Shown here piece after piece: positions 36,613 to 57,816 of a stretch of DNA of 64,000 nucleotides. The translations under genes and the position numbers were made by a program. The notes beneath the pieces were generated by a model that worked only from the letters and a program-made list of their open reading frames with translations, made no database searches and was not told where the DNA came from. The stretch is from an uncultured Chloroflexia bacterium (GTDB lineage Bacteria; Chloroflexota; Limnocylindria; Limnocylindrales; CSP1-4), in the NCBI GenBank assembly GCA_963828165.1, contig CAWHDR010000001.1, forward strand, positions 1,107,543 to 1,171,542. The letters are read 5' to 3'. The first letter of the stretch is position 1. Each line of letters opens with the position of its first letter.

Positions 36613-39594
36613 ATGCAACTCGATCGCTTCACCCAGAAGGCCCAGGAAACCATCCTCGCCGCCCAGGCGACCGCCGAGCGGCTGCACAGCCCGGTCCTCG
36701 ACGCGGAGCATCTCCTCAGCGCGCTCGTCGACCCCGACGACGGCATCCCGGCCGAGACGCTTCGCCGGCTCGGCGTCGATCTGCCGGCGTTCCGCGGCGA
36801 GGTCGCGGCGGCGCTCGCGCGGCGCGCACGTATCGAGGGCGGCTCGCTCAGCCTGGACCCGCGCGCCAAGGGCGTCGTCGAGCGGGCGGAGGCGGAAGCC
36901 CGTCGCCTGTCCGACGACTACGTCTCGACGGAGCATCTGCTGCTCGGCGTCGCCGAGGCCGGCGGCGATGCCCAGGCCATCCTCGAGCGGCACAGCGCCG
37001 GCAAGGAAGCGCTCCTGCAGGCCCTGCAGAGTGTCCGGGGCGGGCAACGTGTCACCTCCCAGAACCCCGAGGGCACGTACGCAGCGCTCGAGAAGTACGG
37101 CCGCGACCTGACCGCCGAAGCGCGGGCCGGCAAGCTGGACCCCGTCATCGGGCGCGACGACGAGATCCGCCGCGTCATCCAGGTCCTCAGCCGGCGGACC
37201 AAGAACAACCCCGTCCTCATCGGGGATCCCGGCGTCGGCAAGACGGCCATCGCCGAGGGCCTCGCCCAGCGCATCGTGCGCGGCGACGTCCCAGAGGGGC
37301 TCAAGGACAAGCGCGTCGTCGGGCTGGACCTTGGCGCCCTCATCGCCGGGGCGAAGTTCCGAGGCGAATTCGAGGAGCGGCTCAAGGCCGTGCTCAAGGA
37401 GATCAAGGACTCGGACGGGCAGGTCGTGCTGTTCATCGACGAGCTCCACACGGTCGTCGGTGCCGGCGCCGCCGAGGGCGCCATGGACGCATCCAACCTG
37501 CTCAAGCCGATGCTCGCACGGGGCGAGCTGCACACGATCGGTGCGACCACCCTCGACGAATACCGCAAGTACATCGAGAAGGACGCCGCGCTCGAGCGCC
37601 GTTTCCAGCCGGTCCTCGTGGATCAGCCCACGGTCGAGGAGACCATCAGCATCCTGCGCGGGCTGCGCGAACGCTACGAGGTCCATCACGGGGTCCGCAT
37701 CACCGATTCCGCGCTCGTGGCCGCGGCGACCCTGTCCGATCGCTACATCACCGAGCGCTTCCTGCCCGACAAGGCGATCGACCTCGTCGACGAGGCGGCC
37801 TCGCGGCTGCGCATGGAGATCGACTCGATGCCGATCGAGCTCGACGAGCTCGAGCGCCGGCGCATCCAGCTCGAGATCGAGCGAGAGGCCCTGCGCAAGG
37901 AGACGGACGACGCGTCGAAGGCCCGCCTCGAGGCGCTCGAGAAGGAGCTGGCGGACCTGGAAGAGCAGGCCGGCGGCATGAAGCAGCGCTGGGAGGCCGA
38001 AAAGGCCGCGATCGCCGCCATCCGCACGACAAAGTCGGAGCTCGAGCAGCTCCAGGTTCGCATCGAGCAGGCGGAGCGGGAGGCTGACTTCGCGACGGCC
38101 GCCGAGCTCAAGTACGCCACCCAGAAGGAGCTCAACGACCGGCTCACCGAGGAGGAAGCGACGCTCGCCGCGCTGCAGGGCCCGGGGACGCTGCTCAAGG
38201 AAGAGGTCGGAGCGGACGACATCGCCCAGATCGTCGGGGCATGGACGGGCATCCCGGTCAGCCGCCTGCTGGAGGGCGAGACCGCCAAGCTCATCGAGAT
38301 GGAGGACCGCCTGCACCAGCGGGTGGTCGGTCAGGACGAGGCCATCCAGGCGGTTTCGGACGCCGTCCGCCGAGCCCGAGCCGGGCTCAAGGACCCGCGC
38401 CGGCCGATCGGCTCGTTCCTGTTCCTCGGCCCGACCGGTGTCGGCAAGACCGAGCTCGCCCGCGCACTTGCCGAGTTCCTGTTCGATGACGAGAACGCGA
38501 TGGTCCGCATCGACATGAGCGAATACATGGAGAAGTTCGCGGTCAGCCGCCTGCTCGGGGCACCCCCGGGCTACGTCGGCTACGAAGAAGGCGGCCAGCT
38601 GACCGAGGCGGTCCGCCGCCGGCCGTACCAGGTGATCCTGCTCGACGAGATCGAGAAGGCCCATCCGGACGTGTTCAACGTGCTTTTGCAGGTCCTCGAC
38701 GACGGCCGCCTGACCGACGGTCAGGGCCGCACGGTGAACTTCAAGAACACGGTCGTGATCATGACCAGCAACGTCGGCTCCGCGGCCATCGCCGCCACGA
38801 ACGCCAGGGCTGGTGACGCTGCCTACGAGCAGATGAAGCGAGATGTCACCGAAGCCCTGCGATCGCACTTCCGGCCGGAATTCCTCAACCGCGTGGACGA
38901 GGTCATCGTGTTCCACGCCCTCACCGACGAGGACCTCAGCGCGATCGTGGACCTGCTGCTCGCGGACCTGGGCCGACGGCTGGCCCAGCAGGACATCGAG
39001 CTGGAGCTGACCGCGGCCGCTCGTGCGCTGATCGTGCGCGAGGGCACCGATCCCGCGTTCGGGGCGCGCCCGCTCAAGCGGACGATCCAGCGACTCGTCG
39101 AGAACCAGCTGGCCCGCGCCCTCGTCGGCGGCGAGTTCCGGCCGGGCGACCGGGTGACGGCGGACGCGGACCTCACGTCGGGCACGCTCGTCTTCTCGAC
39201 CGAGGGCGCGACCGTGGTCGGCGAGGCCGGCCGCCGTGACGCCCGGCGCCGCGAGGACGACGACCTGGCCGCCGTCGGAGGGCGTGCAGGGCCGCCCGAA
39301 TTCGCGCCTGGATCTCCCGCCGACGCGCCCCAAGCGCGACGACGGCGAGCTGGTCAACTGACCCAAGCCGGCCAGCGGCGATCGGTCGGCATGCGCTTCG
39401 ACGTCGCCGCGGACGCGCCTGTCGCTCCTGCCCGATCCCCTGCCGGTCCCGGCCGATGTGATGATGCCCGTCGTCGTCGGCGGGTCGGACCTCAAGGCCG
39501 CCCGCGATGCCGCGTTCCGGCCGGCCCGGGCGACCCGCGGCGGTCCTCGTCCTGCTCTACCCGGACGCCGAGGGTGAGGCCCGCGTGGTCCTGA
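36613..39594 (+). CDS. clpB: Chaperone disaggregase ClpB (the ORF carries a ~130-codon atypical C-terminal run-on)
   Basis: Clp N repeats, NBD1 GDPGVGKTA, a long coiled-coil M-domain, NBD2 GPTGVGKTE, and the canonical end ...[21 protein letters not shown] near 39200. No stop follows until 39594. Confidence 0.9.
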
Positions 39595-40074
39595 TCGAAC
39601 GGACGACCGGTGACGGGCATCACTCGGGCGAGGTCAGCTTTCCCGGTGGCAAGTCGGAGCCCGAGGACGCTGATCCCGCCGCGACCGCCCTGCGCGAGGC
39701 GAACGAGGAGGTGGCCCTCGACGCCGACGCAGCCGGCGTTCGCGTCGTGGGCCTGCTGGATCGGATGTGGATCCCCGTGAGCGACTTCGACGTGACGCCC
39801 GTGGTCGCACTCGCGGAGCGCCCACCACGCTCTGGCGCCGTCCCCGTTCGAGGTGGCCAGGATCCTGGAGCCACACGTCGCCCGCTTCCTTCCCGACGCG
39901 CCGGTGACCATGGTCGAACGGACGATCCGGGAATGGCCTCTGCGTTACGGCACGTACGATCTGGACGGCCTGTCGGTGTGGGGCGCCACGGCACGCATCC
40001 TGAGCCAGCTCGGGGCGGTCCTCGCGCCCGTGGCCGCGGGACCGAGCAAAGACGGGGATCGACCGACGGCCTGA
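39507..40074 (+). pseudogene. NUDIX hydrolase (CoA pyrophosphatase-like), frameshifted
   Basis: The Nudix box GEVSFPGGKSEPEDADPAATALREANEE is in frame 0. The C-terminal part LAPSPFEVARILEPHVARFL...WGATARIL is in frame 1 (ORF 39853..40074). The junction is at about 39818-39832. Confidence 0.7.
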
Positions 40075-40246
40075 GAGGGCCCCGCATCCGATCGCCGGTA
40101 CGGCGGAACCACACGCCGACACATGGCGTCCAGACGGCGGCCCGACGGCACACTCGTGGTGACCGCTCCGGGACCTGCGGGACCGCCATGCGGCCCGCCC
40201 AAGCGGGCCGGTTCCCTCTGCTGGGGCCCGGCTGGGAGGTCGCGTC

Positions 40247-41772
40247 ATGCGCACGCCACTCCTGTTCCTGGCCGGGCTCTCCATCGTGGTCGCCGCTTGC
40301 GGCGGAACCAGTTCCGCGAGCCGGGGGGTCAGCCAGGCGTCCAGAGGATCCCGGGCATCACCAGCCGACCCTTGCGCCGTGGCCGGCGCCCGAAACGACG
40401 CCCTACGGCGGTGTCACGTACGACGATCCGGGTGTCAACCCGTACGTCGATCCCGACGAGGACCAGGTCTCGACCTTCGGCCTCGATGTCGACACCGCGA
40501 GCTACACGATCGCGCAACGCTACGTCGATGACGGCAATCGGCCCGATCCGGCCAGCGTCCGTGTCGAGGAATGGGTCAACGCCTTCGACCAGGGCTACGG
40601 CAGCCCGGACGACGACGCGTTCGCGATCGTGGCCGACGGCGGCCCCACTCCGTTCACCGAGGCCGATGAGGTGCTGCTGCGGATCGGCCTCCAGGCACGC
40701 GACGTGCGGGACCGGGCGCGCGAGGACGCCGCCCTCACCTTCGTCATCGACACGTCGGGCTCGATGGAACGCGAGGGCAGGCTCGAGCTCGTCAAGGATG
40801 CCCTGCGCCTGCTCGTCGAGGGGCTCGGCCGCAACGACAGCGTTGCCATCGTCACGTTCGGCGATGAAGCCCGCGTCCTGCTCGGCCCGACCCGGGCCAC
40901 GGAGGGCAACGAGATCCTCGGCGTCATCGAGCAGCTTCGGCCGGGCGGCTCCACGAACCTGGAGGCGGGTCTGCGGCTCGGGTACGACCTTGCCCGCGAG
41001 TCGCTGACGGAGAACGGCATCGACCGGGTCGTGCTGGCGTCGGATGGCGTCGCCAACGTCGGGTTGACCGATCCTGGATCGATCCTCGATGCGATCCGTC
41101 GTGATGCGGAGGCCGGCATCGAGCTCGTCTCCGTCGGCGTCGGGATGGGCAACTACAACGACACCCTGCTCGAGCAGCTGGCGAACCAGGGCGATGGCTT
41201 CTATGCCTACGTGAACGTCCTGGAGGAGGCCCGCCGGTTGTTCACCGAGGACCTGACCGGGCACGCTGCAGACGGTCGCGCTCGATGCGCGAGCGCAGGT
41301 CGAATTCGATCGCGACGTGGTCGCGGCGTACCGCCTCGTCGGATACGAGAACCGTGACATCCGTGACGACGATTTCACGGATGAGGAGGTGGAAGCGGGT
41401 GCGATCGGTGCCGGGCACGCCGTGACCGCGCTGTATGCGCTCCGGTTGCGCGAGGATGTCGGCCCCCAGGATCTCCTGGGGACCGTGCGGCTGCGCTGGT
41501 CCGATCCGGAGACCGATGCCGTCGACGAGCTCGTGCGCGAGGTTCGGACGAGCGATCTCGCCCGTTCGTTCGAGTCGAGCGCCCCGCACTTCCGGTTTGA
41601 TGCGATCGTCGCGGCGACCGCCGAGGTCCTTCGCGACAGCCCCTGGACAGAACGCCTGGATCTCGTCGCGGTCGCCGATGTGGCCGCGCGCGAGGCGCTG
41701 GGACTTCCCGAGACCGACGAGGTCCACGGGTTCCTCGACCTGCTGGACCGACTCGCCTCGATGGACGGCTGA
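40247..41772 (+). pseudogene. vWA-domain lipoprotein (YfbK-like), two frameshifts
   Basis: The lipoprotein signal MRTPLLFLAGLSIVVAAC is in frame 2. The body is in frame 0 (DVDTASYTIAQRY..., MIDAS FVIDTSGSM, SDGVANVG). The C-terminus is in frame 1 (TLQTVALDARAQVEFDRDVVAAYRLVGYENR...). Confidence 0.75.
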
Positions 41773-41818
41773 ACCTCGACACGGCCGGGCGGGGCGTCGT
41801 GGAGGAGCGGCGCCCCGC

Positions 41819-42289
41819 TCAGGCCGGCTCTCCAGCCTCCGGATCGGGGCGCGGCGGGCGACTGGGATCCGGTCGGAGCGCGCCCTCGGCCGGGCTGACG
41901 GGGCCCGCCGCGAGCTCGCGGGCACGACCCTCGACGATCCCCTTCATGGCGGCGTCATCGGCGTCCGCGAATTCGATCACGAACGCGCGCATCTCCGAAT
42001 GTTCCGTCCACGCGGCGTGCGGGATGTCAGCGGGCCACAGGACGGCCTCGCCGGCCGCGACCCTGGTCCGCTCGTCCCCGACGCCGACCCAGCCCCCGCC
42101 CTCGATGACGATCAGCCACGTCGTGTTCGGCACGGCATGCGGTTCCATCTGGGCGCCGCGCGCGAAGGCGAGCTCCGAGATCACGCCTCGTTCGTCGCTG
42201 TGGATGGGCTGACCGGTCACCCCGGACGTGCCGGCGGGACCATCCGGACGTCGATGGCCAACGCCGAAGCGGCGGATCTCGATCGGCAT
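41819..42289 (-). CDS. Cupin-domain protein
   Basis: 156 aa: ELAFARGAQMEPHAVPNTTWLIVIEGGGWVGVGDERTRVAAGEAVLWPADIPHAAW. Confidence 0.75.
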   Translation of the reverse strand: MPIEIRRFGVGHRRPDGPAGTSGVTGQPIHSDERGVISELAFARGAQMEPHAVPNTTWLIVIEGGGWVGVGDERTRVAAGEAVLWPADIPHAAWTEHSEMRAFVIEFADADDAAMKGIVEGRARELAAGPVSPAEGALRPDPSRPPRPDPEAGEPA

Positions 42290-42324
42290 CGCGTCCCTGA
42301 ACGCCGGCGCTCGATGCGCGCCGG

Positions 42325-42765
42325 TCAGCGCCGACGTCGACGCGGCGGCCGGCGACCGCCGCGTCGACGGATCGTGGCTTCCGGGTCCGCGAACTTCTGC
42401 TTCGTGTAGTAGCGCTGCCGGGCGAGCCGCTGCTCATGGGCGCGCAGCAGCGGCGGGAAGCGGACGAACCGGATCCAGACGAGCGTGCCAAGCCCGATGA
42501 CCGCGGTCGCGAGCACCAGGATGAAGTCGAAGATGAAGAGCGACTCGATCATCAACAAGGCGAAGGTGATCAGCCCGGTCCACCACAGCCACTCCCACAT
42601 GTCCACGAACGGGGCGTGCTTGTGGAGCGCCCGGGTGCGAACGTTGTAGAGGACGATGAGCACGATCAGCAGGATCCCGGAAGCGATCCACGTGGGGTGG
42701 AACAGGTCCGGGAACAGCTCGCTGGTGAACGACGTGAACAGGTACTCCCAGGGCGGCAGCGTCAC
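42325..42765 (-). CDS. Small membrane protein with an Arg-rich C-terminus
   Basis: 146 aa from the GTG at 42765, with GAGG upstream. Three hydrophobic helices (WIASGILLIVLIVLY, WEWLWWTGLITFALLMI, FILVLATAVIGLGTLVWI). Confidence 0.6.
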   Translation of the reverse strand: MTLPPWEYLFTSFTSELFPDLFHPTWIASGILLIVLIVLYNVRTRALHKHAPFVDMWEWLWWTGLITFALLMIESLFIFDFILVLATAVIGLGTLVWIRFVRFPPLLRAHEQRLARQRYYTKQKFADPEATIRRRGGRRPPRRRRR

Positions 42766-42955
42766 ATGGGACCTCGCGAGGGGTGGTGATCGGTCCGGCG
42801 AGGGACGGCACACGTGGCCGATGCCGCTCGACGGTCCCGGGAGTATGCCATGTCGGACGCTATACTTCGGCCGCGACGCGCCCGTGGTCCGCCCGCCCGC
42901 CCAGGACGGCGTGGAAGCAGCCGCTGCGTCGCTGTCGGATCCGCGTGGATGGAGG

Positions 42956-44512
42956 ATGCCCCGGTTGCGAGCCCTGCTGTCAGTCGCGAACCGGGAGGGG
43001 ATCGCCGCGCTCGCGCGGGACCTGCAGGGCCTCGACGTGGAGATCGTGGCCACCGACGGCACGCGCGAATTCCTGGCCGGTGAGGGCGTGGAGGTCGGCA
43101 GCGTGTCCGACCTCACGCAGGTGCCACCGCTCGTCGGTGGACAGGTCAAGACCTTCCACCCGGCCGTGTACGCAGGCATCCTCGCGCGGCGCGACGTGCC
43201 CGAGCAGCTGGCCGAGCTCGAGGCACAGGGCATCGGCCCGATCGACATCGTGGTCGTCAACGTCAAACCGTTCGCGCCGGAGGTCGGCGCGAAGCTCGTC
43301 GGACTCGACGAGGCCATCGAGATGATCGATGTCGGCGGTGCGGCGCTCCTCGGCGCAGCCGCACGCAACGCGGCCGGGGTGACGGCCGTCGCCGATCCGG
43401 CCCACTACCCGACGGTCGTCGAGGAGTTGCGGGCGCTCGGGCACACGAGCCCGGAGCTGCGGGCACGCCTGGCGGCCGAGGCGTTCAGCACGGTCGCGGC
43501 CTATCACGCCGAGATCGCCGCCTACCTCAACCAGATCTCCGGCAACGTCTTCCCGAGCCGGCTCGCGATGGTGCTCGAGAAGGTGGACGAGCTGCGCTAC
43601 GGCGAGAACCCGCACCAGCGAGCGGCGTTCTACCGCGAGACGACGCACCGCAGCGGCACCCTCGCCGATGCCGGCCAGCTCCAGGGCGGCCGCCCGTCGT
43701 TCAACAACCTGCTCGACCTCGATGCCGCGTATCGCATCGCCCGGGACTACACCGCCCCGACGGTCACGATCGTCAAGCACACGGACCCGGTCGGGCTGGC
43801 GTCGCACGAAGAGCTCGTCGAGGCCTACCGGCACGCGCTCGAGACCGATCCCGTCGCGTCCTTCGGCGGCATCGTCGGGGTGAACCGCGAGATGGATGGA
43901 GCGACCGCCCGCGAGATCGCGGCCAACTCGTACGAGGCGGTCGTCGCGCCGTCGTACAGCGCGGCTGCCCTCAAGATCCTGCAGGCCAAGGCCGGGCTGG
44001 AGATCCTCGCCGTGCCACCCGATCCCACGGAAGGCATGCGCGACTACGGCATCGCGAACCTGGACTTCAAACGCGTCGCGGGCGGCCTGCTGGTCGAGGA
44101 CCTCGACGACCTGGCGCTCGATCGCGGCAACCTGCAAGTCGTCACCCGCCGCCGACCGACGCTCGAGGAGCTCACCGACCTGCTGTTCGCGTGGCGCGCG
44201 GTGCGCCACGTGCGATCGAACGCGATCATCCTGGCCCGCAACGGCGCGACCGTGGGGATCGGCGCCGGCCAGGCGTCGCGGGGGGTGTCGGTCGAGATCG
44301 CGCTCCGGCGGGCCGGCGACCGGTCCAAGCTGGCCGTCATGGCCGCGGACGCGTACTTCCCGTTCCCGGACGGCATCCAGCTGGCGGCCTCGGCCGGCGT
44401 GACGGCGATCATCCAGCCCGGCGGCTCCATCCGCGACGAGATGGCGATCGAGGTCGCCGACCGCCATCATCTCGCGATGGTCTTCACCGGCCGGAGGCAT
44501 TTTCGACACTGA
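42956..44512 (+). CDS. purH: Bifunctional AICAR transformylase / IMP cyclohydrolase
   Basis: 518 aa from ATG 42956, with GGAGG upstream. MGS-like domain ([18 protein letters not shown]...GGQVKTFHP) and AICARFT domain ([28 protein letters not shown]). Uninterrupted. Confidence 0.95.
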
Positions 44513-45495
44513 TGGAACAGCTGCTCGCGCTCGAGATGATCCGGGTCACGGAGGCGGCCGCCATCGAGTCCGCGCGCTTCATGGGTCGCGGCGAGCGCGA
44601 CGGCGCCGACGCGGCGGCCACCGAGGCGATGCGCAAGACGATGGACGAGATCGACTTCGCCGGACGGATCGTGATCGGCGAGGGCGAGCGTGACGAGGCC
44701 CCGATGCTGTACATCGGGGAGCGGGTCGGGCGCACCGGCGCGGACCGCGATGACGTGCCGCGCGTCGACATCGCGGTCGATCCGCTCGAGGGCACGAACC
44801 TCGTGGCGCACGGGCAGGCCGGTGCCATCACGGTCCTCGCCGCCTCGGAGGCGGGCGGCCTGACGCATGCCCCGGACACGTACATGGAGAAGCTGTGCGT
44901 CGGACCGGTCGTCGCCGGCAAGGTCGACATCCGCCACACGCCCACGGAGAACCTTCGTGCGATCGCCGACGCCCTCGGGCGAAAGGTCGGGGACATCACG
45001 ATCGTCATCCTGGAGCGACCGCGCCACGATGCGCTCATCAAGGAGGTCCGCGAGGCCGGCGCCCGGATCAAGCTCATCGGCGATGGTGACCTGTCGGCCG
45101 CCATCTCGTGCGCCGTGTCGGGGACCGGCGTCCACGCGGTCATGGGCATCGGGGGCGCGCCAGAGGGCGTCATCACCGCGGCGGCCCTGCGCTGCCTGGG
45201 CGGCGAGATCCAGGCCCGCTTCAGGTACCGCAGCGACGACGAGCGCGAACGAGGTGCGCGGATGGGCCACGGCGACGAGGACCGCGTGTACTCGACCGAA
45301 GACCTCGCCCCGGGGGAGAACCTCGTGTTCGCCGCGACCGGTGTCACCGCCGGCGACCTCCTGTCGGGTGTCCGCTTCTTCGGCGGCGGCGCGCGGACGC
45401 ACTCACTGGTGATGGCCTACCAGACCAAGCAGGTGCGCTTCGTCGACACGGTCCACATGTTCGATCGCGACAGCCCGCCGCGGGTCCGGCTCTGA
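44512..45495 (+). CDS. glpX: Class II fructose-1,6-bisphosphatase (GlpX type)
   Basis: 327 aa: [58 protein letters not shown]. The ATG overlaps the purH TGA by 1 nt. Uninterrupted. Confidence 0.9.
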
Positions 45496-45539
45496 CCCGA
45501 GCGGCACCCGCGAGCCGGCTCGGCGCGGCGCTGCCCGGC

Positions 45540-46575
45540 TTGGTGGCGTGCGCCATCGTCGCGCTGATTGCGCGGCTCATCGGGAACGCGCTGGCGCTGG
45601 GCCTCGAGACGCCGGTGGCGCTCGCCTTCGGACTCGTGATCGGCAGCGTCGCTCCGGTTCGGGCTGTCCTCCTGGCCGGGGCCGCGCCCGCCGCCCGGTT
45701 GGCTCTCCGGCTCGGGATCACGCTCCTCGGGGCCCGATTGACGCTCGACCAGTTGATCTCGACCGGTGGAGCCAGCCTGCTGGCCATCGTGCTGGTCGTC
45801 TCGGTCGCGCTGCTCCTGGGGACGTTCCTCGCGCGACGGCTCGGGCTGCGGCCGCCGCTGTCAGCGCTGATCACCGTGGGCATGGCGATCTGCGGCAACT
45901 CGGCGATCCTCGCGCTGTCACCGATCCTTCGCGCCCCACCTCGCGACACCGCCTATGCCGTGTCGACGATCACCCTGTTCGGACTCGTGGGCGTGCTGCT
46001 GCTGCCGTTCGTGGGGTCGCTCCTTGGATTGTCGGACGCGGCGTTCGGGATGTGGGCCGGCCTCGCGGTCAACGACACGGCCCAGGTGGTCGCGAGCGGG
46101 CTACGCGTTCTCGCCACCGGCCGGCGACGTGGCCACGGTCGTCAAGCTGACGCGCAACATCGCGATCCTGCCCGTGTTGCTCGGGGCGACCTGGCTCGCG
46201 GTTCGGGCGGCCACGGCCGATGCCTCGGCGGTGTCGGCTGGGTCGACCCCCCGGCTGGTCGCCCGCGCCGTGCCCTGGTTCGTGGTCGGGTTCGTGGTCG
46301 TCGCCGGGCTGCGCTCGGCAGGCCTGCTCGAGGGTGAGCTGTGGGGAGAATCGCTCGCCGAGCTGTTCCAGAGCGGTGCGACGGTCCTCATCCTGGTGGC
46401 GCTGGCGGGCGTCGGGATCTCGACCGATATCCGGGCGATGCTCGGGGTCGGTGCCCGGCCGTTCGTCCTCGGTGCCTCGATGTGGGTCGTCATCGGTCTG
46501 CTCGGGCTGGTCCTGGCGATGGTCCTCGTGGAACCGCCGAGCGGTGGTCTGACGGCCGTCTACCATGGGGGATAG
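45540..46575 (+). pseudogene. yeiH: YeiH/UPF0324-family membrane protein (putative sulfate exporter family), one frameshift
   Basis: The N-terminal two thirds are in frame 0 (…GMAICGNSAILA…GMWAGLAVNDTAQVVASG). The remainder is in frame 1 (YAFSPPAGDVATVVKLTRNIAILPVL…). The junction is at the GGG run 46098-46100. The start (TTG 45540 or GTG 45543) is uncertain. Confidence 0.75.
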
Positions 46576-46579
46576 CGCC

Positions 46580-47981
46580 ATGGACATCGAGATCATCCTC
46601 ACCCCCGGCCTGGGCAACGCGACCTACCTGCTCGCCTCGGACGGCGAGGCGATCGTGGTCGATCCGCCGCGTGACGCGTGGCGAGTCACAGCCGTCGCCG
46701 ACGCCAGGGGCTGGCGGCTGACCCACGTGGTCGAGACCCACGTCCACAACGACTACCTGTCGGGCGCGCTCGAGCTGCGAGCCGCACCGGCGCGCCGAGA
46801 TCGTCGCGCCGGCCCGCGGTCGCTACGCCTTCGAGCATCGGGGCGCGGACGAGGGCGACGCGGTCGAGGTCGGCGGTCTCCGGCTCGTCGCCCGGGCGAC
46901 ACCGGGACACACGCCGGACCATCTCGCCTGGGAGGTACGGGCGGACGGAGCGGCCGACCCATCGGCCGTGCTGACCGGCGGCAGCCTGCTTGTGGGGAGC
47001 GCCGGGCGGACGGACCTGCTGGGACGCCGACGCGACGGAGGATCTGACGCGCGCGCAATTCGCCTCGCTCCAGCAGCTGGCGACGCTGCCCGACGACGTG
47101 GCGGTGCTGCCCACCCACGGACGCTGGCAGCTTCTGCGCGGCGGGGCCCGTCCACGGCGGCCGCACCTCCACGATGGGCGCTGAGCGGCGGATGAACCCG
47201 CTGCTGTCGGCATCCGACGAGACGTCGTTCCGCGTCGAGCTGCTCGGAGGCCTCGGGGCCTACCCGACCTACTACGACGCGATGGCTCCGATCAACCGGG
47301 CCGGACCAGCCGTCCTCGGCCGGCCGGCCCTGCCACCGCGGCTCGACGTTGCCGGGTTCGCCGCGGCCGTCAGCGCCGGGGCCCATGTCGTCGACGGCCG
47401 ACCACGCGCCGAGTTCGCAGCCGGCCACCTGCCGGGCTCGATCAACATCGAGCTGACCGACACCTTCGCCTCGTACGTCGGCTGGTTCGTTCCGTTCGGG
47501 GCGGCGGTGGCGCTTGTGCTCCCGGAGCCGCACAGGGAGGCACTCGAGGAGGCGACCGTCCAGCTGTTCCGGATCGGCTATGACCGGGTCGTGGGGGCAT
47601 TGACCGGCGGCCTGGCCGCCTGGGCGGCATCCGGTGCCCGGATCGAGACCTACCCCACGACCACGATCGAGGCACTTCACGAGCAGGCGCTCGCCGGGCG
47701 GAACGCGTATGCCCTCGACGTCCGGGATCCCCACGAGTGGCGCGAGGACGGCGGCGTGCCGGGTGCGATCCGGATCCCGCTCGGCGACCTGTCGGAGCGG
47801 CTCGCCACGATCCCCCGCGACGCGCCGGTGACCGTCATGTGCAAGTCCGGTGCGCGCGCGTCGATCGCCGCCAGCCTGCTTGATGCTGCCGGTCTCGACG
47901 TGCGGCTCATCGACCAGGGCGGCGCACCCGACTGGCCCGCGACGAGCCCGCGCCGAGGCGGCGGACGCCACCCGTCGGTGA
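46580..47981 (+). pseudogene. MBL-fold hydrolase fused to rhodanese (persulfide-dioxygenase-like), four frameshifts
   Basis: Fragments in frames 2, 0, 1, 2, 0 read continuously: …ETHVHNDYLSGALELRAA | AEIVAPARGRYAFEH…ATPGHTPDHLAW…GRTDLLG | ADATEDLTRAQF…LPTHG | AGSFCAAGP… rhodanese VMCKSGARAS …GGAPDWPATSP | AEAADATRR-stop. Confidence 0.75.
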
Positions 47982-49251
47982 CGACGGCGGCGACGATCCT
48001 CGGCGAGGATCACGCCCGACGGCTCGACGCGGCCGACCCCCTGGCCGGTCATCGCGACCGGTTCCTCCTGCCGACGGACGCCCGACGGAACGCCCAAGGT
48101 CTACCTGGCCGGACAGTCTCTGGGCGCCCAGCCGGCTGCGGCTCGGGACGAGGTGGAAGCGGAGCTCGACGCGTGGGCACGGCTCGGCGTCGACGGGTGG
48201 TTCGCCGCGAAGCGAGCCTGGCTCGACGCCGACGGCGCGATCCGTGAACCGACGGCGACGCTGGTCGGTGCTCGACCCGACGAGATCGCGACGATGAACA
48301 CCCTGACCGTGAACCTGCACCTGCTGTTCGCGACGTTCTTCCGGCCCGCGGGCGGGCGGACCGCGATCCTCATCGACGCGCCGACGTTCCCGTCCGACCG
48401 GTACGCCGTCGAGTCGCAGCTTCGCCTGCACGGCCTCGCCCCAGCGCGCGACCTCATCGTGGTCCGCCCCCGCGACGGGGAGGCGCTGCTGCGCACCGAG
48501 GATCTCGAAGGGGCCATCCACGAGCATCGGGATCGCCTTGCCGTGGCGCTCCTCGCAGGCGTGAACTACGCCACCGGCCAGGCGCACGACATCGGGACGG
48601 CTCACCGCGGCGGTCCACGATGCGGGTGCTGTCGCCCTCTGGGACCTGGCGCACGCGGTCGGAAACGTCCCGCTGACCTTGCACGATGAGGAGGTCGATG
48701 GCGCCGCGTGGTGCACGTACAAATACCTCAACGGCGGCCCTGGATCGATCGGCCAGGTGTTCGTTCACGAACGGCACGCGGCCGACGCTTCCGCCCTGCG
48801 GCTGACCGGTTGGTGGGGCAACGACCCAGCCACGCGGTTCGAGATGGCCGAGACCTTCGAGCCGGCGCGCGGCGCCGACGGCTGGCGGATCTCGACGCCG
48901 CCCATCCTGTCGCTGGCACCGATCCGCGCATCGCTCGCGATCTTCGACGAGGTAGGGATGTCCGCCTTGCGCCGGAAGTCCGTCGAGCTGACCGCCTATT
49001 TCGAGGGTCTCATCGAGGCGCTCGTAACCGACGCCGAGATCCTGACGCCACGTGCCCCTGGAGCCCGCGGGGCCCAACTCTCGCTGCGATTCCCGGATGC
49101 GACGCGCCGGCTGGACGCGCTGGAGGCTGCGGCGGTCATCGCCGACTTCCGCGAGCCCGACATCATCCGCATGGCGCCGGTCCCGCTGTACAACACCTTC
49201 CACGACGCTTGGCGCGCCGCGCGAGCGCTCGCGGAGACGCGCTCGGCCTAG
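47978..49251 (+). pseudogene. kynU: Kynureninase, two frameshifts
   Basis: The GTG 47978 overlaps the inferred upstream stop (GTGA). Fragments: …DPLAGHRDRFLLPT | APDGTPKVYLAGQSLGAQP…MNTLTVNLHL…GVNYATGQAHDIG | RLTAAVHDAGAVALWDLAHAVGNVPL…AAWCTYKYLNGGPGSIG… (PLP lysine context). Confidence 0.8.
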
Positions 49252-49259
49252 TCGACTAC

Positions 49260-50249
49260 TCAGCCAAGCCGCAGGTTCGGCAGCACGTCCTTGCCGAAGA
49301 CCTCGATGAACTCGGCCTGATTGCGGCCGACGTTGTGGAGATGGATCTCGTCGAAGCCCATGTCCACGTAGTGCTGGATGTGCTTCGTATGTGCTTCGAG
49401 ATCGCTGGTCATCAGCACCCGGTTCTTGAAGTCCTCGGGTTTGACCAGCTTCGCCATTGCCGCGAAGTCCTCGGGATTCTTGATGTCCTGCTTCGGGAAC
49501 GTCATCCCGCCGTTGGGCCACTCGACCATCGCGTTCTGCACGGCCTCTTCATTGGTGCGCGCCCACGAGATGTGGATCTGGAGCATCTTCGGCGCCGTAG
49601 CCGCTGTCTTGCCGGCCTCACGGGCGCCCTCCTCGAATTTCTCCCAGAGCATCGAGATCTTCTCGTCGGCCGCGCCGACCGTGATGATGCCGTCGGCAAA
49701 CTTCCCGGTCTTCTTCGCGTTAATGGGACCGGCCGTCGCGACGTACACGGGCACCGGCACCTCGGGGCGGGTGTAGAGCTTCGCGCTCTCGAGGGTGAAG
49801 AACTCTCCCTTGTGCTTGACGACTTTGCCGGTGAACAGCTTGTTGATGATCTCGATCGACTCGAACATCATTGCGCTGCGGATCCCGATCTCGGGCCACA
49901 CACCTCCGACGACGTGCTCGTTCAACGCTTCGCCGGCCCCCAGCCCGAGGTAGAAGCGCCCGGGGTACATCGCGCCGATCGTGGCCGCGGCGTGGGCGAT
50001 CACCGCGGGGTGGTAACGGAAGCCTGGGCACGTGACCGCCGTCCCGAACCTGAGGCTCGTCCGCTGCCCGAGCGCGCCCATGAAGGACCAGGCGAATGCG
50101 CTCTGGCCTTGTTGGGGGGTCCACGGGTGGAAGTGCTCGCTGACCATGAACCCGGCTTCCAATCCGGCAGCCTCAGCCTGGGCGCACCAGTCGAGCAGGT
50201 CGTTGGGGTGGAATTGCTCGAGCATCGCCGCATAGCCGATCGTGGTCAT
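49260..50249 (-). CDS. LLM-class F420-dependent oxidoreductase, glucose-6-phosphate dehydrogenase (Fgd) family-like
   Basis: 329 aa: IGYAAMLEQFHPNDLLDW...FMVSEHFHPW...LGLGAGEALNEH...VYVATAGP. Lower-GC codon usage than upstream genes. Confidence 0.75.
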   Translation of the reverse strand: MTTIGYAAMLEQFHPNDLLDWCAQAEAAGLEAGFMVSEHFHPWTPQQGQSAFAWSFMGALGQRTSLRFGTAVTCPGFRYHPAVIAHAAATIGAMYPGRFYLGLGAGEALNEHVVGGVWPEIGIRSAMMFESIEIINKLFTGKVVKHKGEFFTLESAKLYTRPEVPVPVYVATAGPINAKKTGKFADGIITVGAADEKISMLWEKFEEGAREAGKTAATAPKMLQIHISWARTNEEAVQNAMVEWPNGGMTFPKQDIKNPEDFAAMAKLVKPEDFKNRVLMTSDLEAHTKHIQHYVDMGFDEIHLHNVGRNQAEFIEVFGKDVLPNLRLG

Positions 50250-50333
50250 CGTCGTCCTCCGTCGTCGTTCGTCGATCTGACGATTTCCGCCGTTCGGCCC
50301 TCGAGATTGTACCCAATCATGTGTCGCTTGTAT

Positions 50334-50861
50334 CTATGTCCGCGCATCGTCGGCGAGGAGGACGACGCGCGTCCGGCGTGGCGCTGTACGATCCAGGCGC
50401 TCTACGTCTCGCCTACGCAGAAGGTAGCCGCTAGGACCGCGCGATGCGCGCAGGCGGCCCGTGCGAATGGCTCGACGGAGCCATCCGACCTCCCGCTTGA
50501 CTAGATTCGCCGCCTCGCGCACCGACAGTGGGTCTCCAGCTTGGTAGAAGTCGCTGTGGTGACCGAGGTCGCTGTGATAGATGGGCCCCGCGTCGACAGC
50601 GTAGGTCGCTGGTCCGCCGGTGCCAGGAGGGGCGAACCGGCCCAAACTCAGCCGCGCGTCGTAAGCCGCGCGACGCTTCCCGTCCCCCAGGACTTCGTAA
50701 GCGCGGGCGATCCGCTTGAACTGTCGCTCCATCGCTGGATCATCGGAATGCCTGTCGGGATGGGTGGCGCGGGCAAGGCGTCGATACGCTGACCGGATTT
50801 CGCCAGGTGTTGCCCCAGGCTCGAGCTCCAACGTCGCATAGTGGCCGCTACGCCGCGCCAT
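50334..50861 (-). CDS. J-domain protein fused to an excisionase-type HTH
   Basis: Start set at M22. J domain HYATLELEPGATPGEIRSAYRRLARATHPDRH...YEVLGDGKRRAAYD. C-terminus LSVREAANLVKREVGWLRRAIRTGRLRASRGPSGYLLRRRDVERL resembles HTH_17/excisionase-type DNA-binding domains. Confidence 0.7.
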   Translation of the reverse strand: MARRSGHYATLELEPGATPGEIRSAYRRLARATHPDRHSDDPAMERQFKRIARAYEVLGDGKRRAAYDARLSLGRFAPPGTGGPATYAVDAGPIYHSDLGHHSDFYQAGDPLSVREAANLVKREVGWLRRAIRTGRLRASRGPSGYLLRRRDVERLDRTAPRRTRVVLLADDART

Positions 50862-51010
50862 GGCCCTTCTACTTGGCGCTTCGTTGGCCCGTGACGCTCG
50901 CCCCGATTGGTGCGCCCCGGCCATTCATGATCGTCTTCAAGGATTCGGCAACCTCTTGCGGGTGCGAGCGTCGCGGGGAGGAGGCACCGCGACCCTCGCA
51001 GGGATTGTTT

Positions 51011-52006
51011 CTAGACGCCGACCGTGGCCGGTTGGCCGACGCGCGGTAGGACATCGCTGGCGAGGGTCTCGATCTGGTCGAGCCAGTCCGGGAAGCGCAT
51101 CCGGAAATCGAAGATCAGGAGATCGCAGCCAATCTCCTGGTAGCGCTGAACGCCGCGGACAATATCGTCGGGCGAACCGGCCAGGATCGAGCCGTCGAGC
51201 TCCTCGATCGTCGTGAACTCGCCGCCTTCCGGCTTCAGCCAGAACTTCTGCGCGTTCGCGTTCTTGATGAGCCCGGGCACGTTCATGCGGCGTGTCGCGG
51301 CTTCGAACGAACTGTCGATGCTGGTGACCGGCACAGCGCCCGTCCAGATCATCCGCTTGCCCTGCTCGGCGGTCATGTCGCGAATCTTGGCGACCCGCGC
51401 CTCGTACGTTGAGAATGGAATCCGGCCGGGCAGCCAGCCATCGCAAAAGTCGACCGCAAGGCGCGCCGACGCGGGCGTCGCACCGCCCCACCAGACGGGC
51501 ACGGGATGGAGCGGCTGCGGCTTCAAGTCCACGTCCTCGAAGTCGTATAGCTCGCTGTGCCAATCGACCGTCTCGCCGGTCCAAAGCTTGCGGGCTATGA
51601 GCGTCTGCTCCTTCATCAACTCAGGGCGCTTGAGGTCTCCCTGGCCGATCACGTCGAATTCGTGCTGGAAGTTGCCGGCGCCGATGCCGAGGTCGAACCT
51701 CCGGCGCGTGATCCACGACAGCGACGCGATGCTTGAGGCCATGTGGATCGGGTGGCGGAACGGAATAATGGTCGCCGCACCGAGGCCGATCCTCTCGGTC
51801 ACTCCGGCCAGATATGTAAGAGCCACAAACGGGTCGATGAACGTGCGGTCCGTGCCCTCCATGCCGTGCGGATGGAACACGAGGTGATCGCGCACCCACA
51901 AGGAGTCGAAGCCGAGCCGTTCGGCGAGCTTGGCGCCCTCGATCAGCAGATCCTGGTCAGCCTCGACCCCGAAGTGCGGGACGAGCAGTCCGAAACGCGT
52001 GGCCAT
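51011..52006 (-). CDS. LLM-class flavin/F420-dependent oxidoreductase
   Basis: 331 aa luciferase-like TIM barrel: FGLLVPHFG...LGFDSLWVRDHL...LGIGAGNFQHEF...VPVWWGG. Confidence 0.8.
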   Translation of the reverse strand: MATRFGLLVPHFGVEADQDLLIEGAKLAERLGFDSLWVRDHLVFHPHGMEGTDRTFIDPFVALTYLAGVTERIGLGAATIIPFRHPIHMASSIASLSWITRRRFDLGIGAGNFQHEFDVIGQGDLKRPELMKEQTLIARKLWTGETVDWHSELYDFEDVDLKPQPLHPVPVWWGGATPASARLAVDFCDGWLPGRIPFSTYEARVAKIRDMTAEQGKRMIWTGAVPVTSIDSSFEAATRRMNVPGLIKNANAQKFWLKPEGGEFTTIEELDGSILAGSPDDIVRGVQRYQEIGCDLLIFDFRMRFPDWLDQIETLASDVLPRVGQPATVGV

Positions 52007-52021
52007 GGTTCCGTACTCTCC

Positions 52022-53428
52022 TTAGGCTCCTACCGACACGGTTGTCGGCGTGGTGGTCGGTCGCGCGTGGCGACCCCGGCCCGGAAGGCCGCTGACCGTT
52101 CCATCGGCGTAGATCACCTCGCCGCGCGAGATCGTGCTGGTTACAGCGCCGCGAACGCGACGACCAGCGTACGGCGTCCAGCCACATTTGCTGAGCACGA
52201 GGTCGTCGGTGATTTCGAATTCGGCGCCGAGGTCGACGACGGCGATGTCAGCGTCCGCGCCGACGTCTAATCGGCCCTTGTCGCCGAGACCGAAGACGCG
52301 AGCCGGTGTGGTCGCCGTCGCGTCGGCGATTCGCTCGAGGCTGATCCGGCCGGCGGCGCTCGCGTCGAGGAGTAGGGAGAGGTAGAACTGTGTTGATGGC
52401 GTACCCGTGTGGGCCTTCCAGCCGTCGGTCCAACCCGGCTCCTTCTCCACACGCAGGTGCGGAGCGTGGTCGGTCGAGACGAGGTCGATCGTCCCGTCGC
52501 GAAGGGCCTCCCAGAGCGGATCGGTATTCGATTCCGGCACGTAGTACGAGAGCGCATACGAACCGAGCCGCTCGATGTTCGACCAGTCGTTGCCCAGGAA
52601 CACGGCCCACGGGTTGATCTCAGCTGAGACGACCTGGCCAGCGTCCTTTGCGCGGCGCAGTTGCTCGATCACGCCCCGCGTCTGGGTATGGAGCAGGTGG
52701 AGTCGCGTTCCGGTCGCCTTCTGAAGTCGCAACAGCAAGGCTACCGCGGTGTCCCAGATGATCCCGTCATGCGCCGCGTACGCCTTGGCATATGCGCGGA
52801 AGTCGCGCTCGCCACGCTCCCAGTACCGCTCCTCGATCGCGGTCATGAGCGCCTGGTCGTGGGGATGGACCATAAGCGGCAAGCTCGTTTCGGCAACAGC
52901 CCCGAAGATCCGCAGCAGGTCGCCGTGGTCGTGCACGCCGATGCCGGGCATGTGCGGGTAGTCCCGACCCGTGTCGACGACCATGAACACCTTGAAGGCG
53001 GCAATGCCCATGGTCGCAAGCTCGGGGATCTCGTCGAGGACGGTGCCAGCGGCATTCACGTTGTAATCGACGATCGACTTCTCGGCGTACAGCCGGAGAA
53101 TCGACGCTAGCCGTTCCGCCGTGTTCGGGGGAGGCTGGACGTTCGGCATCGCGAATGACGTGGTCACGCCGCCGGCCGCGCACGCCGACGTGGCACTGAC
53201 GATGTCCTCCTTTTCGGTGAATCCGGGCTCGCGGTGGTGGCTGTGGACGTCGATCAGACCCGGCAGCAGGTGACGGCCCGTCGCGTCGATGATCTTCGTC
53301 GCGTCCAGGGGCGTACCCGGATCGACGATGGCTGCGATCCGCCCATCGGCCACCGCGACGTCCGCCGTAGCAAGACCAGTGGCGGACACCACTGTGCCGC
53401 CGCTGATCACGAGGTCGTAGGTCCTCAC
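52022..53428 (-). CDS. Cyclic amidohydrolase (dihydropyrimidinase / hydantoinase / allantoinase / dihydroorotase family)
   Basis: 468 aa from the GTG at 53428. Metal ligands GLIDVHSHH, carbamylated-Lys context AAFKVFM, MVHPH, LVSTDHAP. The GTG overlaps the upstream stop (GTGA). Confidence 0.85.
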   Translation of the reverse strand: MRTYDLVISGGTVVSATGLATADVAVADGRIAAIVDPGTPLDATKIIDATGRHLLPGLIDVHSHHREPGFTEKEDIVSATSACAAGGVTTSFAMPNVQPPPNTAERLASILRLYAEKSIVDYNVNAAGTVLDEIPELATMGIAAFKVFMVVDTGRDYPHMPGIGVHDHGDLLRIFGAVAETSLPLMVHPHDQALMTAIEERYWERGERDFRAYAKAYAAHDGIIWDTAVALLLRLQKATGTRLHLLHTQTRGVIEQLRRAKDAGQVVSAEINPWAVFLGNDWSNIERLGSYALSYYVPESNTDPLWEALRDGTIDLVSTDHAPHLRVEKEPGWTDGWKAHTGTPSTQFYLSLLLDASAAGRISLERIADATATTPARVFGLGDKGRLDVGADADIAVVDLGAEFEITDDLVLSKCGWTPYAGRRVRGAVTSTISRGEVIYADGTVSGLPGRGRHARPTTTPTTVSVGA

Positions 53429-54393
53429 GCGCCCGACGCCTCGCTGATCCCGTCGACATACCGGATCGAAGCTTCCGGTGCCGCCTGGTGGACCGCGATA
53501 TCCCCGGCTACGAGGTAGCACTGAAACCACTCGACGATCATGGGAGCGACGACATCGCGATACTGCTCATAGGCGCCGTAATGCGTCGTTCCGGTCTGTA
53601 CCACCAGTCGCTTCGGGGTGCCCGCCTTCTCGTACAGCGCGTAGCTGTGGTCCTCGGGCGTCGTCCAGTCGTTCTCGACACAAATGAACATCGCTGCACG
53701 GGGTGCGATGCGGTCGACGACGTCGATCGGACGGTACTCGAAGATTGCCTCCGCGCTTGCTAGAGCCACGAGTTCTGGGATCCGATGGTCGACATCGGAC
53801 TTGACTTGTGTGACCTTGCGCTCGGGCGTGGGAACCATGATGCCGTCCCGTGGCGCGACCATCGCACCCTTCCCGGTGCGGTTTCGTTCCAGGCGATCGA
53901 GGCGAAGCTCGCTGAGGAACTCCAGCCATTCGTGTTCGCGGCGCATTCGCCGTAGCCAGTCCCGCCCGTCCGAGATCGGCACCTGCGCGACCATGGCTTT
54001 GAAGCGTGGGTCCAACGCCGCGGCCATGACAGCGTTTCCACCGCCCGTGCCACCGGAGCCGAAAGCACCCACGCGATTCGCGTCAATCTCTGGCCTGGTT
54101 TCGAGGTATGTCGCGGCGCTTATGAAGTCCTCAACCTGGGTCCTCGGATCAAGGAACGTCGCGTCGCCCTCAGAGTCCCCAAAGCCACGGTAGTCAAAGA
54201 CGAGCACGGCGATGCCCGCGGTCAATAGAGCGTCGTGGTATGGCTTATATAGCTTCGCGTCGCGAAGCCCGAGCCAGCCTGGGCCCTGCGCGACCGCGGC
54301 AACGGGCCCGTCCGCCGACGCTCCGGCGGGGAGCATCAGGGTGCCGGCCAGCATCGCGCCATGACTGTAGAAGCGGACCTGCTCGATGGGCAT
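53425..54393 (-). CDS. Alpha/beta-fold hydrolase
   Basis: 322 aa: VLVFDYRGFGDSEG, nucleophile-elbow region VGAFGSGGTGGG, C-terminal THYGAYE. First gene of the hydrolase-amidohydrolase-LLM operon. Confidence 0.7.
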   Translation of the reverse strand: MPIEQVRFYSHGAMLAGTLMLPAGASADGPVAAVAQGPGWLGLRDAKLYKPYHDALLTAGIAVLVFDYRGFGDSEGDATFLDPRTQVEDFISAATYLETRPEIDANRVGAFGSGGTGGGNAVMAAALDPRFKAMVAQVPISDGRDWLRRMRREHEWLEFLSELRLDRLERNRTGKGAMVAPRDGIMVPTPERKVTQVKSDVDHRIPELVALASAEAIFEYRPIDVVDRIAPRAAMFICVENDWTTPEDHSYALYEKAGTPKRLVVQTGTTHYGAYEQYRDVVAPMIVEWFQCYLVAGDIAVHQAAPEASIRYVDGISEASGA

Positions 54394-54465
54394 CGATCCC
54401 TCGGCGTGGAACTGTCAGCATGGATCCGGCCCGAACTTAGCCGGGGCGCATCCGATTTGATGGCC

Positions 54466-54495
54466 AATGTACCCAAGTTGGCGGTGATTGTCCAC
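54466..54495 (-). promoter_or_regulatory. Candidate promoter/operator shared with 55741..55770
   Basis: The minus strand reads GTGGACAATC-ACCGCCAACTTGGG-TACATT (TGGACA, 17 nt, TACATT), about 70 nt upstream of the hydrolase ATG. Confidence 0.4.
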
Positions 54496-54594
54496 ATTTT
54501 CGAGGAGTCGCTTGCCCTGGAGTTAAAGGCCCGCCATGGGAAGGGTCGCCATCGAACGGGTTGACGTGGGCCGCCAGGGGACCGCTGCCTGACG

Positions 54595-55314: not shown

Positions 55315-55740
55315 CGCACACCTCCGACCTCGGTCCATCTGAATCGGATCGAGTCCTCGACCGTCGCGCGACGGCGCAGGCGCAGACGCCCCGATCGAAC
55401 GATTTGTCCGAGCGCCGGATCCTTTCCGGCAAAGATTGTCACACTGTACCCACCTCGGTGGACACATTGGTATCCGTGGGCACGAAATGAGTAGCCTCAG
55501 GGTCTTGTGGTCAACCGCGCAGATTCGCCTAAGGCATGCACGGCGAAGACACCGGACTGAGAGGATTCACGGCTGGCTCGAACGCCTAATTCGGGCTCTG
55601 GGGTCCCAGCCTCACGATCATGGCTAGGCGGCGACATAGCTGCCAATGATTCGGTGGGAGGCATACAAACCGGTCGGAAGCACACCGCCGCCTGATCGAT
55701 TTGACGACGGAGCCGTGATGTGGGCAGTTTGCGGTGTGGT

Positions 55741-55770
55741 GTGGACAATCTTGTTGACTTTGGATACCCA
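55741..55770 (+). promoter_or_regulatory. Candidate promoter/operator shared with 54466..54495
   Basis: GTGGACAATC-TTGTTGACTTTGGA-TACCCA (TGGACA, 17 nt, TACCCA), 66 nt upstream of the ABC binding-protein ATG. Confidence 0.4.
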
Positions 55771-55835
55771 CTTAGTCCAGACTCGGCGAGATCGGACCCA
55801 GACTTCCTGCAAGTCGGGCGCTGGAGGAGAGCACG

Positions 55836-56900: not shown

Positions 56901-56935
56901 GCCAGAACCCTCCAAGCGACGACAGAGTCACGTAA

Positions 56936-57805: not shown

Positions 57806-57816
57806 TAGAGGTGGGC

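Follow-up and report, generated by a model that had tools for sequence, protein, structure and literature searches.

The run of single extra bases that breaks several genes between 39.3 and 48.6 kb of the window (the whole stretch of 64,000 nucleotides that was analysed) would, with a probability of roughly 0.93 and judging from comparisons with related sequences, consist of polishing errors in the consensus of a metagenome assembly built from long reads of Nanopore type, rather than of mutations. The source organism is an uncultured soil Chloroflexota of Limnocylindria type. A technical cause is favoured because private +1 shifts also occur in sister long-read assemblies, even in housekeeping genes, and none is found in short-read assemblies. 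Clustered +1-only shifts thus recur in Nanopore-type loci and never in short-read loci, which argues for a signature of the pipeline and against gene decay.

A staircase of +1 frameshifts

The succession of reading frames is visible as a staircase in a GC3 frame plot and in the output of a 7-state frame caller. With the frame defined as the coordinate mod 3, blastx searches against the ORFs of 80 related loci recovered the paths 0 to 1 for the NUDIX hydrolase and yeiH, 2 to 0 to 1 for the vWA lipoprotein and kynU, and 2 to 0 to 1 to 2, then to 0 in the tail, for the MBL-rhodanese fusion. These are the paths that the sequence-only reading had listed, and its gene identities for these five and for cupin, purH and glpX agree with Pfam. 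Nucleotide alignments placed ten single extra bases exactly, in addition to a net +1 change in the tail of one gene (Table 1); each extra base is absent from all aligned relatives, which number 2 to 10 per site and include short-read MAGs. All shifts in this run are +1, and each of the ten events to which a direction can be assigned is an insertion; the fourth step in MBL-rhodanese is a net +1 of ambiguous direction, with two 1-nt gaps against the nearest relative within the variable tail (47938-47975).

Table 1. Genes and extra bases in the frameshifted part of the window. Frames are given as coordinate mod 3; L001, L003, L004, L081 and contig_4121 denote the sequences compared.
Feature	Position	Strand	Details
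clpB	36613..39362	+	915 codons after repair; +1 frameshift 20 codons upstream of stop; Pfam on contig_4121 orthologue, tail comparison
Extra T, GAA[T]TC, ClpB frame 1 to 2	39301	+	Absent in L081, L001, L003
Three extra bases (39417, 39495, 39498), ClpB-NUDIX intergenic spacer	39417..39498	.	Relative to contig_4121
NUDIX hydrolase	39507..40074	+	188 codons after repair; Pfam
One extra base, NUDIX frame 0 to 1, placement ambiguous	39831..39836	+	Absent in 10 relatives
vWA / YfbK_C lipoprotein	40247..41772	+	~507 codons after repair; Pfam
Extra base, vWA frame 2 to 0	40338..40339	+	Window CG; C in contig_4121, L003, L004; G in L001
Extra G, GG to GGG, vWA frame 0 to 1	41259..41261	+	Absent in 10 relatives
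Unbroken block: cupin, small membrane protein, purH, glpX	41819..45495	.	No indel vs contig_4121; Pfam; gene calls on contig_4121
cupin	41819-42289	-	Unbroken
Small membrane protein	~42325-42765	-	Unbroken
purH	42956-44512	+	Unbroken
glpX	44512-45495	+	Unbroken
yeiH-type membrane protein, PF03601	45543..46575	+	343 codons after repair
Single extra G or C of ambiguous placement, yeiH frame 0 to 1	46096..46101	+	Absent in 9 relatives
MBL-fold hydrolase / rhodanese fusion	46580..47981	+	Pfam; repair
Extra base, MBL-rhodanese frame 2 to 0	46786..46787	+	Window AC; A in contig_4121; C in L001, L003
Extra A, GGG[A]CGCC, MBL-rhodanese frame 0 to 1	47024	+	
Extra G, GGAC[G]CTGG, MBL-rhodanese frame 1 to 2	47123	+	
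Net +1 (frame 2 to 0), variable C-terminal tail of MBL-rhodanese	47938..47975	+	One insertion or two 1-nt deletions
kynU (kynureninase)	47978..49251	+	~422 codons after repair; Pfam
One extra base, kynU frame 2 to 0	48075..48080	+	Window CCGACGGACG; contig_4121 CCGAGGACG; L001 CCGACGGGT
One extra base (GG to GGG, or G+A), kynU frame 0 to 1	48594..48597	+	Absent in 7 relatives

The shifts had been described as confined to five dispensable genes, a description that fails at the upstream end of the run, where the intergenic spacer is hit and where the shift in ClpB removes its conserved C-terminal tail, readable in frame 2 only. Because ClpB and intergenic DNA are also hit, the events are blind to gene function. 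The cupin, small membrane protein, purH and glpX genes are indeed unbroken, with no indel against contig_4121 in the nucleotide alignment between 41259 and 46098. The chance of sparing them had been put at about 1 %, an arithmetically correct figure (0.629^10) that assumes independent and uniformly placed events, whereas the insertions are strongly clustered in the window, as they are in sister assemblies. The rate in the window cluster, ~20 per 10,000 codons, lies at the upper end of the range of the sister loci. The classic context of Nanopore errors is the homopolymer; the majority of the window insertions fall outside homopolymers. At positions 1-13366 and 50269-64000, where a near-identical comparator is lacking, frames were assessed by the GC3 frame caller only, which performs poorly in the lower-GC 50-64 kb.

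Three candidate features were set aside. The motif GGACG occurs at 4/10 insertion sites, but hundreds of copies are expected in the GC-rich window (rough estimate). A preference for wobble-adjacent positions (8/9, against about two thirds by chance; p ~0.14) supports no claim. An apparent loss of 1 nt from a luciferase-like gene (49937-49942) was discarded, that gene of the window being collinear in one frame with ~40 relatives.

A near-identical contig with private insertions of its own

The closest comparator, contig_4121 (ENA ERZ25039530), is 99.5 % identical to the window over 13367-33945; over 39000-46800 the identity per 200 nt is 97-100 %, one divergent block excepted. Its glpX and purH proteins are identical to those of the window. 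All ten extra bases are missing from it, and the genes for NUDIX (188 aa), vWA (507 aa) and yeiH (343 aa) are called intact there. Private single insertions of its own, at positions where the window is unaffected, include 33204 (inside the Lon substrate-binding domain), 21975, 46917, 46958, 47249, 47732, 48674, 48794, 48919 and 49327. MBL-rhodanese and kynU, in which the TGA stop of the former overlaps the GTG start of the latter, are also broken in contig_4121, at sites other than those of the window. Like contig_4121, L001 and L003 have private insertions of their own.

Repair and constraint of the broken genes

Deletion of one base per site turns ClpB, NUDIX, vWA, yeiH, MBL-rhodanese and kynU into full-length, stop-free genes, even where a gene had taken two to four hits. 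In the repaired genes no sign of relaxed constraint was found, whether premature stops, larger deletions or a dN/dS near 1; with L001 and relatives further removed than it as references, dN/dS is 0.08-0.37 and mostly 0.10-0.25, and on these ratios the repaired genes are under purifying selection. The fragments had been taken as collinear parts of single proteins, and orthologue alignments bear this out: after repair, MBL-rhodanese aligns collinearly and at 100 % coverage to >4000 intact proteins, which measure 454-480 aa. A search for an intact, near-identical twin of the divergent allele that the window has for this gene found none, the best match being 85 % identical.

Comparison of Nanopore-type and short-read loci

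As a control, the same ten proteins were followed in 81 related loci, 42 of Nanopore type and 39 from short reads. The Nanopore-type loci contain 40 '+1' steps and a single '-1' step in these proteins, with the steps clustered per locus, and the clustered +1-only pattern is seen in 17/42 of them as against 0/39 short-read loci; the latter show 0 frame steps in 88,342 aligned residues. Event positions differ from one sister assembly to the next, and the frameshifted genes include Lon, DnaJ, ClpB and glpX, so that the earlier suggestion that the spared genes are protected does not hold across these loci.

The window purH is 98 % identical to that of a Microflora Danica (MFD) MAG, and MFD contigs make up 41/80 of the related loci. 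MFD MAGs are Nanopore-only Flye (metaFlye) assemblies, polished with a single Medaka round and not with short reads (PMC12313526). Nanopore-only MAGs are reported to need ~40-fold coverage to escape frameshift-causing indels (PMC9262707), and in soil assemblies frameshift errors are commoner in ONT than in HiFi data (PMC13087279). The window resembles the indel errors of such MAGs (metaFlye plus Medaka, e.g. mmlong2 / Microflora Danica) in that indels of one base split the gene calls, occur in one assembly alone, are repaired by one-base deletions and are absent from short-read relatives, in keeping with a problem that the literature places below ~40-fold coverage and in soil data. It differs from them in that the events are mostly non-homopolymer, tightly clustered and almost exclusively insertions (40/41 in sister loci, 10/10 resolvable in the window). 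The literature searched yielded no description of Flye, Medaka or this pipeline as erring towards insertions only.

How the extra bases may have arisen

The error process of such assemblies would add single bases and almost never remove them. Errors would fall in local clusters, each extra base moving the frame by +1 and the series producing the staircase. The window itself probably stems from a Nanopore-type assembly; proteins identical to its glpX and purH are on record from a contig of >1 Mb, a length typical of long-read assemblies. The clusters may mark stretches of poorly supported consensus, owing to low depth and/or to several co-occurring strains whose reads were stacked on a single contig. 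At 3/10 sites (40339, 46786 and 48075-8) the alleles of the two nearest relatives stand side by side in the window; for a reading in which both alleles were kept, the remaining sites comprise three homopolymer extensions and four untidy cases. Retention of both alleles may be, at those three sites, a partial mechanism. purH and glpX were presumably spared by chance or by lower local polymorphism and not by selective protection.

Alternative explanations

The sequence-only reading had offered two alternatives, and one of them, a locally poor, insertion-prone assembly, is strongly supported by the private extra bases, the one-base repairs and the contrast between Nanopore-type and short-read loci. 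The other, in which dispensable genes of this strain have genuinely and recently become pseudogenes through a bias towards insertion while selection kept purH and glpX intact, is very unlikely. The frameshifts are truly present in the sequence, most of them lie in plausibly dispensable genes, and the broken MBL-rhodanese and kynU of contig_4121 could be read as parallel loss; several frameshifts per gene, and broken genes interleaved with intact housekeeping genes, are also known from the pseudogenes of reductive evolution in Mycobacterium leprae and host-restricted pathogens. Unlike in those pseudogenes, however, the window shifts are not shared by the near-identical strain, each event being private to one assembly, and they come without stops, deletions or raised dN/dS (0.10-0.25). 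The vWA gene, with 2 frameshifts, differs from its contig_4121 counterpart by only ~8 substitutions. The hits extend to ClpB and the spacers, and in sister Nanopore loci +1-only shifts strike essential genes and others (glpX, Lon, DnaJ, ClpB) that are never shifted in short-read loci. The indel spectrum expected of decay runs in both directions and is usually deletion-biased, whereas all resolvable events here are insertions. Mira, Ochman and Moran reportedly described, in 2001, a deletion bias in bacterial mutation, i.e. the opposite direction.

That the extra bases are real at all is very improbable; on such a reading one strain of an uncultured soil Limnocylindria would have gained, very recently, eleven single-base insertions within 9.3 kb. 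The ClpB tail, NUDIX, vWA, yeiH, MBL-rhodanese and kynU would then have been subject to a mutational process that acts locally and by insertion only, or to a hitch-hiking burst, and the look-alike pattern of the sister Nanopore loci would be a coincidence.

Programmed +1 recoding, by ribosomal frameshifting or transcriptional slippage and with the genes expressed despite the shifts, shares its single direction with the +1 frameshifting of prfB (RF2), but is negligible as an explanation: the window has no conserved shift site, no orthologue among the relatives is shifted at these sites, the ten contexts have no slippery or stall motif in common, some events are intergenic, and the positions differ in each sister assembly. 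A pairwise comparison alone is blind to which sequence changed, and the window could in principle be correct and its relatives, contig_4121 included, each have lost a base per site; this too can be dismissed, since the shorter form is found in 2 to 10 independent relatives per site, short-read MAGs among them, and yields intact ORFs of family length.

Implications for MAGs of this lineage

With consensus error as the preferred explanation, the biological weight of the frameshifts is small and the broken genes are best treated as intact. The organism should accordingly be credited with a kynureninase, a persulfide-dioxygenase-type MBL-rhodanese, YeiH, a vWA lipoprotein and a NUDIX hydrolase. 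Among MAGs of this lineage built from Nanopore reads only, shifts come in local clusters and are almost always +1; they can convincingly mimic selective gene decay, and such MAGs are an unsafe basis for pseudogene calls. Pseudogene counts, inferences of gene loss and metabolic reconstructions drawn from them have to be compared with relatives by a frameshift-aware method or validated at the level of reads.

Gene content and reading frames

At a G+C content of ~70 %, the window has long ORFs in every one of its six frames, which makes raw ORF lists uninformative. Genes and frames were defined using a combination of Pfam searches on ORF fragments, a GC3 frame plot with a 7-state frame caller, and blastx against ORFs from 80 related loci. 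The order obtained from Pfam, GC3 and blastx is clpB, NUDIX, a vWA/YfbK_C lipoprotein gene, cupin (minus strand), a small membrane protein gene (minus strand), purH, glpX, yeiH (PF03601), an MBL-fold/rhodanese fusion, kynU and a luciferase-like monooxygenase gene (minus strand). The sequence belongs to an uncultured Chloroflexota from soil, of Limnocylindria/Limnocylindrales type; MAG MFD08497.bin.2.150 encodes a protein with 98 % identity to its purH, and "MFD…contig_N" records make up 41 of the set of 80 related loci. The MAGs of Microflora Danica derive from Nanopore data only, assembled with Flye and given one round of Medaka (PMC12313526). Two loci labelled Candidatus Saccharimonadales/Patescibacteria, L024 (DASPHN010000206.1) and L025 (DATNFQ010000252.1), carry a purH 86 % identical to the Limnocylindria-type purH of the window, and both contigs have probably been binned wrongly and contaminate their MAGs. 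MBL-rhodanese ends in a TGA that shares bases with the GTG from which kynU starts (GTGA, 47978-47981). This arrangement, kept in the related loci L081, L001 and L004, points to coupled translation of MBL-rhodanese and kynU.

Extra bases in the window and in sister assemblies

The sequence-only reading had described at least 10 frameshifts at 39200-49251, all in the +1 direction and restricted to five dispensable genes. Every frame path that it listed was reproduced by blastx against the relatives' ORFs and by the frame caller, and the events were placed by nucleotide alignment against L001, contig_4121 and 2 to 10 relatives per site. In all, six genes carry eleven frame changes of +1 (the MBL-rhodanese tail being a net +1), and there are insertions between genes as well. 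The restriction to five dispensable genes did not hold, since clpB and the spacer downstream of it are also changed; a conserved 19-residue ClpB tail, found in all relatives, is readable in the shifted frame only. The clustering is real, as a single window-specific extra base was found over 13.4-39.2 kb relative to contig_4121 and no second staircase was shown by the frame caller in the window. GGACG occurs in four of ten insertion contexts (47024, 47123, 48080 and 48597), two of which have ACGGAC[G]C in common; this recurrence may reflect chance at 70 % G+C, or a context-dependent or methylation-related basecalling error.

Extra bases in the window and in contig_4121 (window coordinates; frame = coordinate mod 3)
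Assembly	Position	Gene or region	Frame step or remark
Window	14005		C4 vs C3 in contig_4121
Window	39301	clpB	extra T, 1->2, twenty codons upstream of stop
Window	39417, 39495, 39498	clpB–NUDIX spacer	three extra bases vs contig_4121
Window	39831	NUDIX	0->1
Window	40338/9	vWA	2->0
Window	41259	vWA	0->1
Window	46096-46101	yeiH	0->1
Window	46786/7	MBL-rhodanese	2->0
Window	47024	MBL-rhodanese	0->1
Window	47123	MBL-rhodanese	1->2
Window	47938-47975	MBL-rhodanese, variable C-terminal tail	2->0, net +1; two 1-nt gaps vs nearest relative, either one insertion or two deletions
Window	48075-80	kynU	2->0
Window	48594-7	kynU	0->1
contig_4121	13395, 13677, 13713, 13855, 13978, 14553	around holB/NYN region	six in 1.2 kb
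contig_4121	21975, 30629, 30640		
contig_4121	33204	Lon substrate-binding domain	contiguous in window
contig_4121	46917, 46958, 47249, 47732	MBL-rhodanese	
contig_4121	48674, 48794, 48919	kynU	
contig_4121	49327	luciferase-like gene	

The comparator contig_4121 (ENA ERZ25039530; 728 kb, with a Flye-style name) was found by exact-protein look-ups. Its glpX and purH proteins are identical to those of the window, and its nucleotide identity to the window is 99.5 % over 13367-33945 and 97-100 % (per 200 nt) over 39000-46800. None of the ten localised extra bases occurs in contig_4121, where single genes are called for NUDIX (188 aa), vWA (507 aa) and yeiH (343 aa). It has private single extra bases of its own where the window is intact, and extra bases private to L001 and L003, also +1 steps, lie in their Lon and DnaJ genes; several independent assemblies of close relatives thus carry private, clustered insertions at differing sites. 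Outside its holB/NYN cluster, contig_4121 has two extra bases in a Usp gene and one in Lon; a further one interrupts a 389-aa gene, of which the short-read contig L084 has an unbroken copy. In yeiH of L003, an MFD MAG, a compensated insertion and deletion ~320 nt apart (equivalent to window positions 45681 and 46000) put the sequence between them into a different frame.

Repair, constraint and control across related loci

Deletion of one base at each of ten sites restored full-length genes without stops for clpB (915 codons), NUDIX (188), vWA (about 507), yeiH (343), MBL-rhodanese (at least 454) and kynU (about 421). More than 4000 intact proteins, 454-480 aa long, could be aligned with the repaired MBL-rhodanese across 100 % of its sequence, and vWA differs from contig_4121 by two frameshifts and only ~8 substitutions. 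In pairwise comparison with more distant relatives, the repaired genes gave dN/dS values of mostly 0.10-0.25, the divergent MBL-rhodanese allele included. The stops, deletions and relaxed constraint expected after two to four real frameshifts per gene were not seen in the repaired genes.

As a control, ten proteins (repaired where needed) were searched by tblastn against 81 related loci, and frame changes between adjacent collinear alignment segments were counted. The 42 Nanopore-type loci (MFD "contig_N" and contig_4121) gave 40 +1 steps and one −1 step over 152,866 aligned residues, whereas the 39 short-read loci (MEGAHIT/SPAdes names) gave none in either direction over 88,342; we calculate the chance of such a split at ~1e-8 if events are proportional to aligned length. 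The window gave nine +1 steps by the same count. Steps in Nanopore-type loci were clustered per locus, as in L023 (five in Lon, one each in ClpB and NUDIX), L028 (three in ClpB, two in kynU, one in DnaJ), L076 (two each in Lon and glpX, one in ClpB) and L038 (two in glpX). Besides Lon, DnaJ and ClpB, the affected genes thus include glpX, which the sequence-only reading had counted among the protected ones. Single direction and clustering are properties of the Nanopore-type assembly class, and the apparent gene selectivity vanishes once several assemblies are compared.

Divergent block and synteny break

At 46800-48000, covering most of MBL-rhodanese, the window is only 73-83 % identical to contig_4121 (a difference of 15-25 % over 46.8-48.0 kb), between flanks 97-100 % identical per 200 nt; 49400-50268 is divergent as well. 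The window MBL-rhodanese allele is ~80 % identical to every relative seen (best database protein, 85 %), with a dN/dS of ~0.15-0.19, and the 46800-48000 block resembles either an allele exchanged through recombination or an island that varies between strains. Synteny breaks at ~50268-50850: alignments of contig_4121, L001 and L004 end at ~50260, where an HPPK gene comes next, those of the related loci L005, L010, L018 and L029 reach ~50800-50850, and 50.9-64 kb has no match among the fetched loci. G+C drops there from ~0.72 to 0.60-0.65. The break could be natural gene-order variation or an assembly join.

Origin of the extra bases

Private bases, clean repair and the 81-locus control all favour the second alternative of the sequence-only reading, so that the extra bases are very probably (about 0.93) an artefact of a locally poor, insertion-prone assembly and not a biological feature. 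The consensus step of Nanopore-type assemblies would add bases where support is poor, plausibly through locally low depth, through the merging of reads from several co-occurring strains into a single contig, or through both. Frameshift-causing indels are absent from Nanopore-only MAGs only once coverage reaches roughly 40-fold (PMC9262707), frameshift errors are commoner in ONT than in HiFi soil assemblies (PMC13087279), and close strains are collapsed into consensus contigs by Flye (PMC8302730). No description of an insertion-only bias was found in the literature. Some evidence, applying to part of the sites, points to strain collapse: the window has CG at 40339 (C in contig_4121, G in L001) and AC at 46786 (A and C in the same two relatives), is a hybrid of their haplotypes at 48075-8, and its second cluster overlaps the divergent 46.8-48.0 kb block. 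The remaining sites comprise three plain homopolymer extensions and four untidy cases.

The other alternative, real insertion-biased decay with purH and glpX kept by selection, is highly improbable. It is contradicted by extra bases private to one assembly, by one-base deletions that cleanly repair all six genes, by purifying selection in these genes, by the changes in clpB and spacers, and by the confinement of the +1 excess to Nanopore-type loci, in which glpX, Lon, DnaJ and ClpB themselves carry steps. Bacterial mutation has a deletional bias, opposite to that required for such decay. Programmed +1 recoding is excluded, as orthologues are unshifted without exception and the insertion sites have no common motif. 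A correct window from which other assemblies lost bases is likewise excluded, as all aligned relatives at each site, short-read MAGs included, have the ORF-preserving shorter form.

The original observation was accurate and made with care. Otherwise of little interest here, it has value as a warning that pseudogene calls from Nanopore-only MAGs are unsafe.
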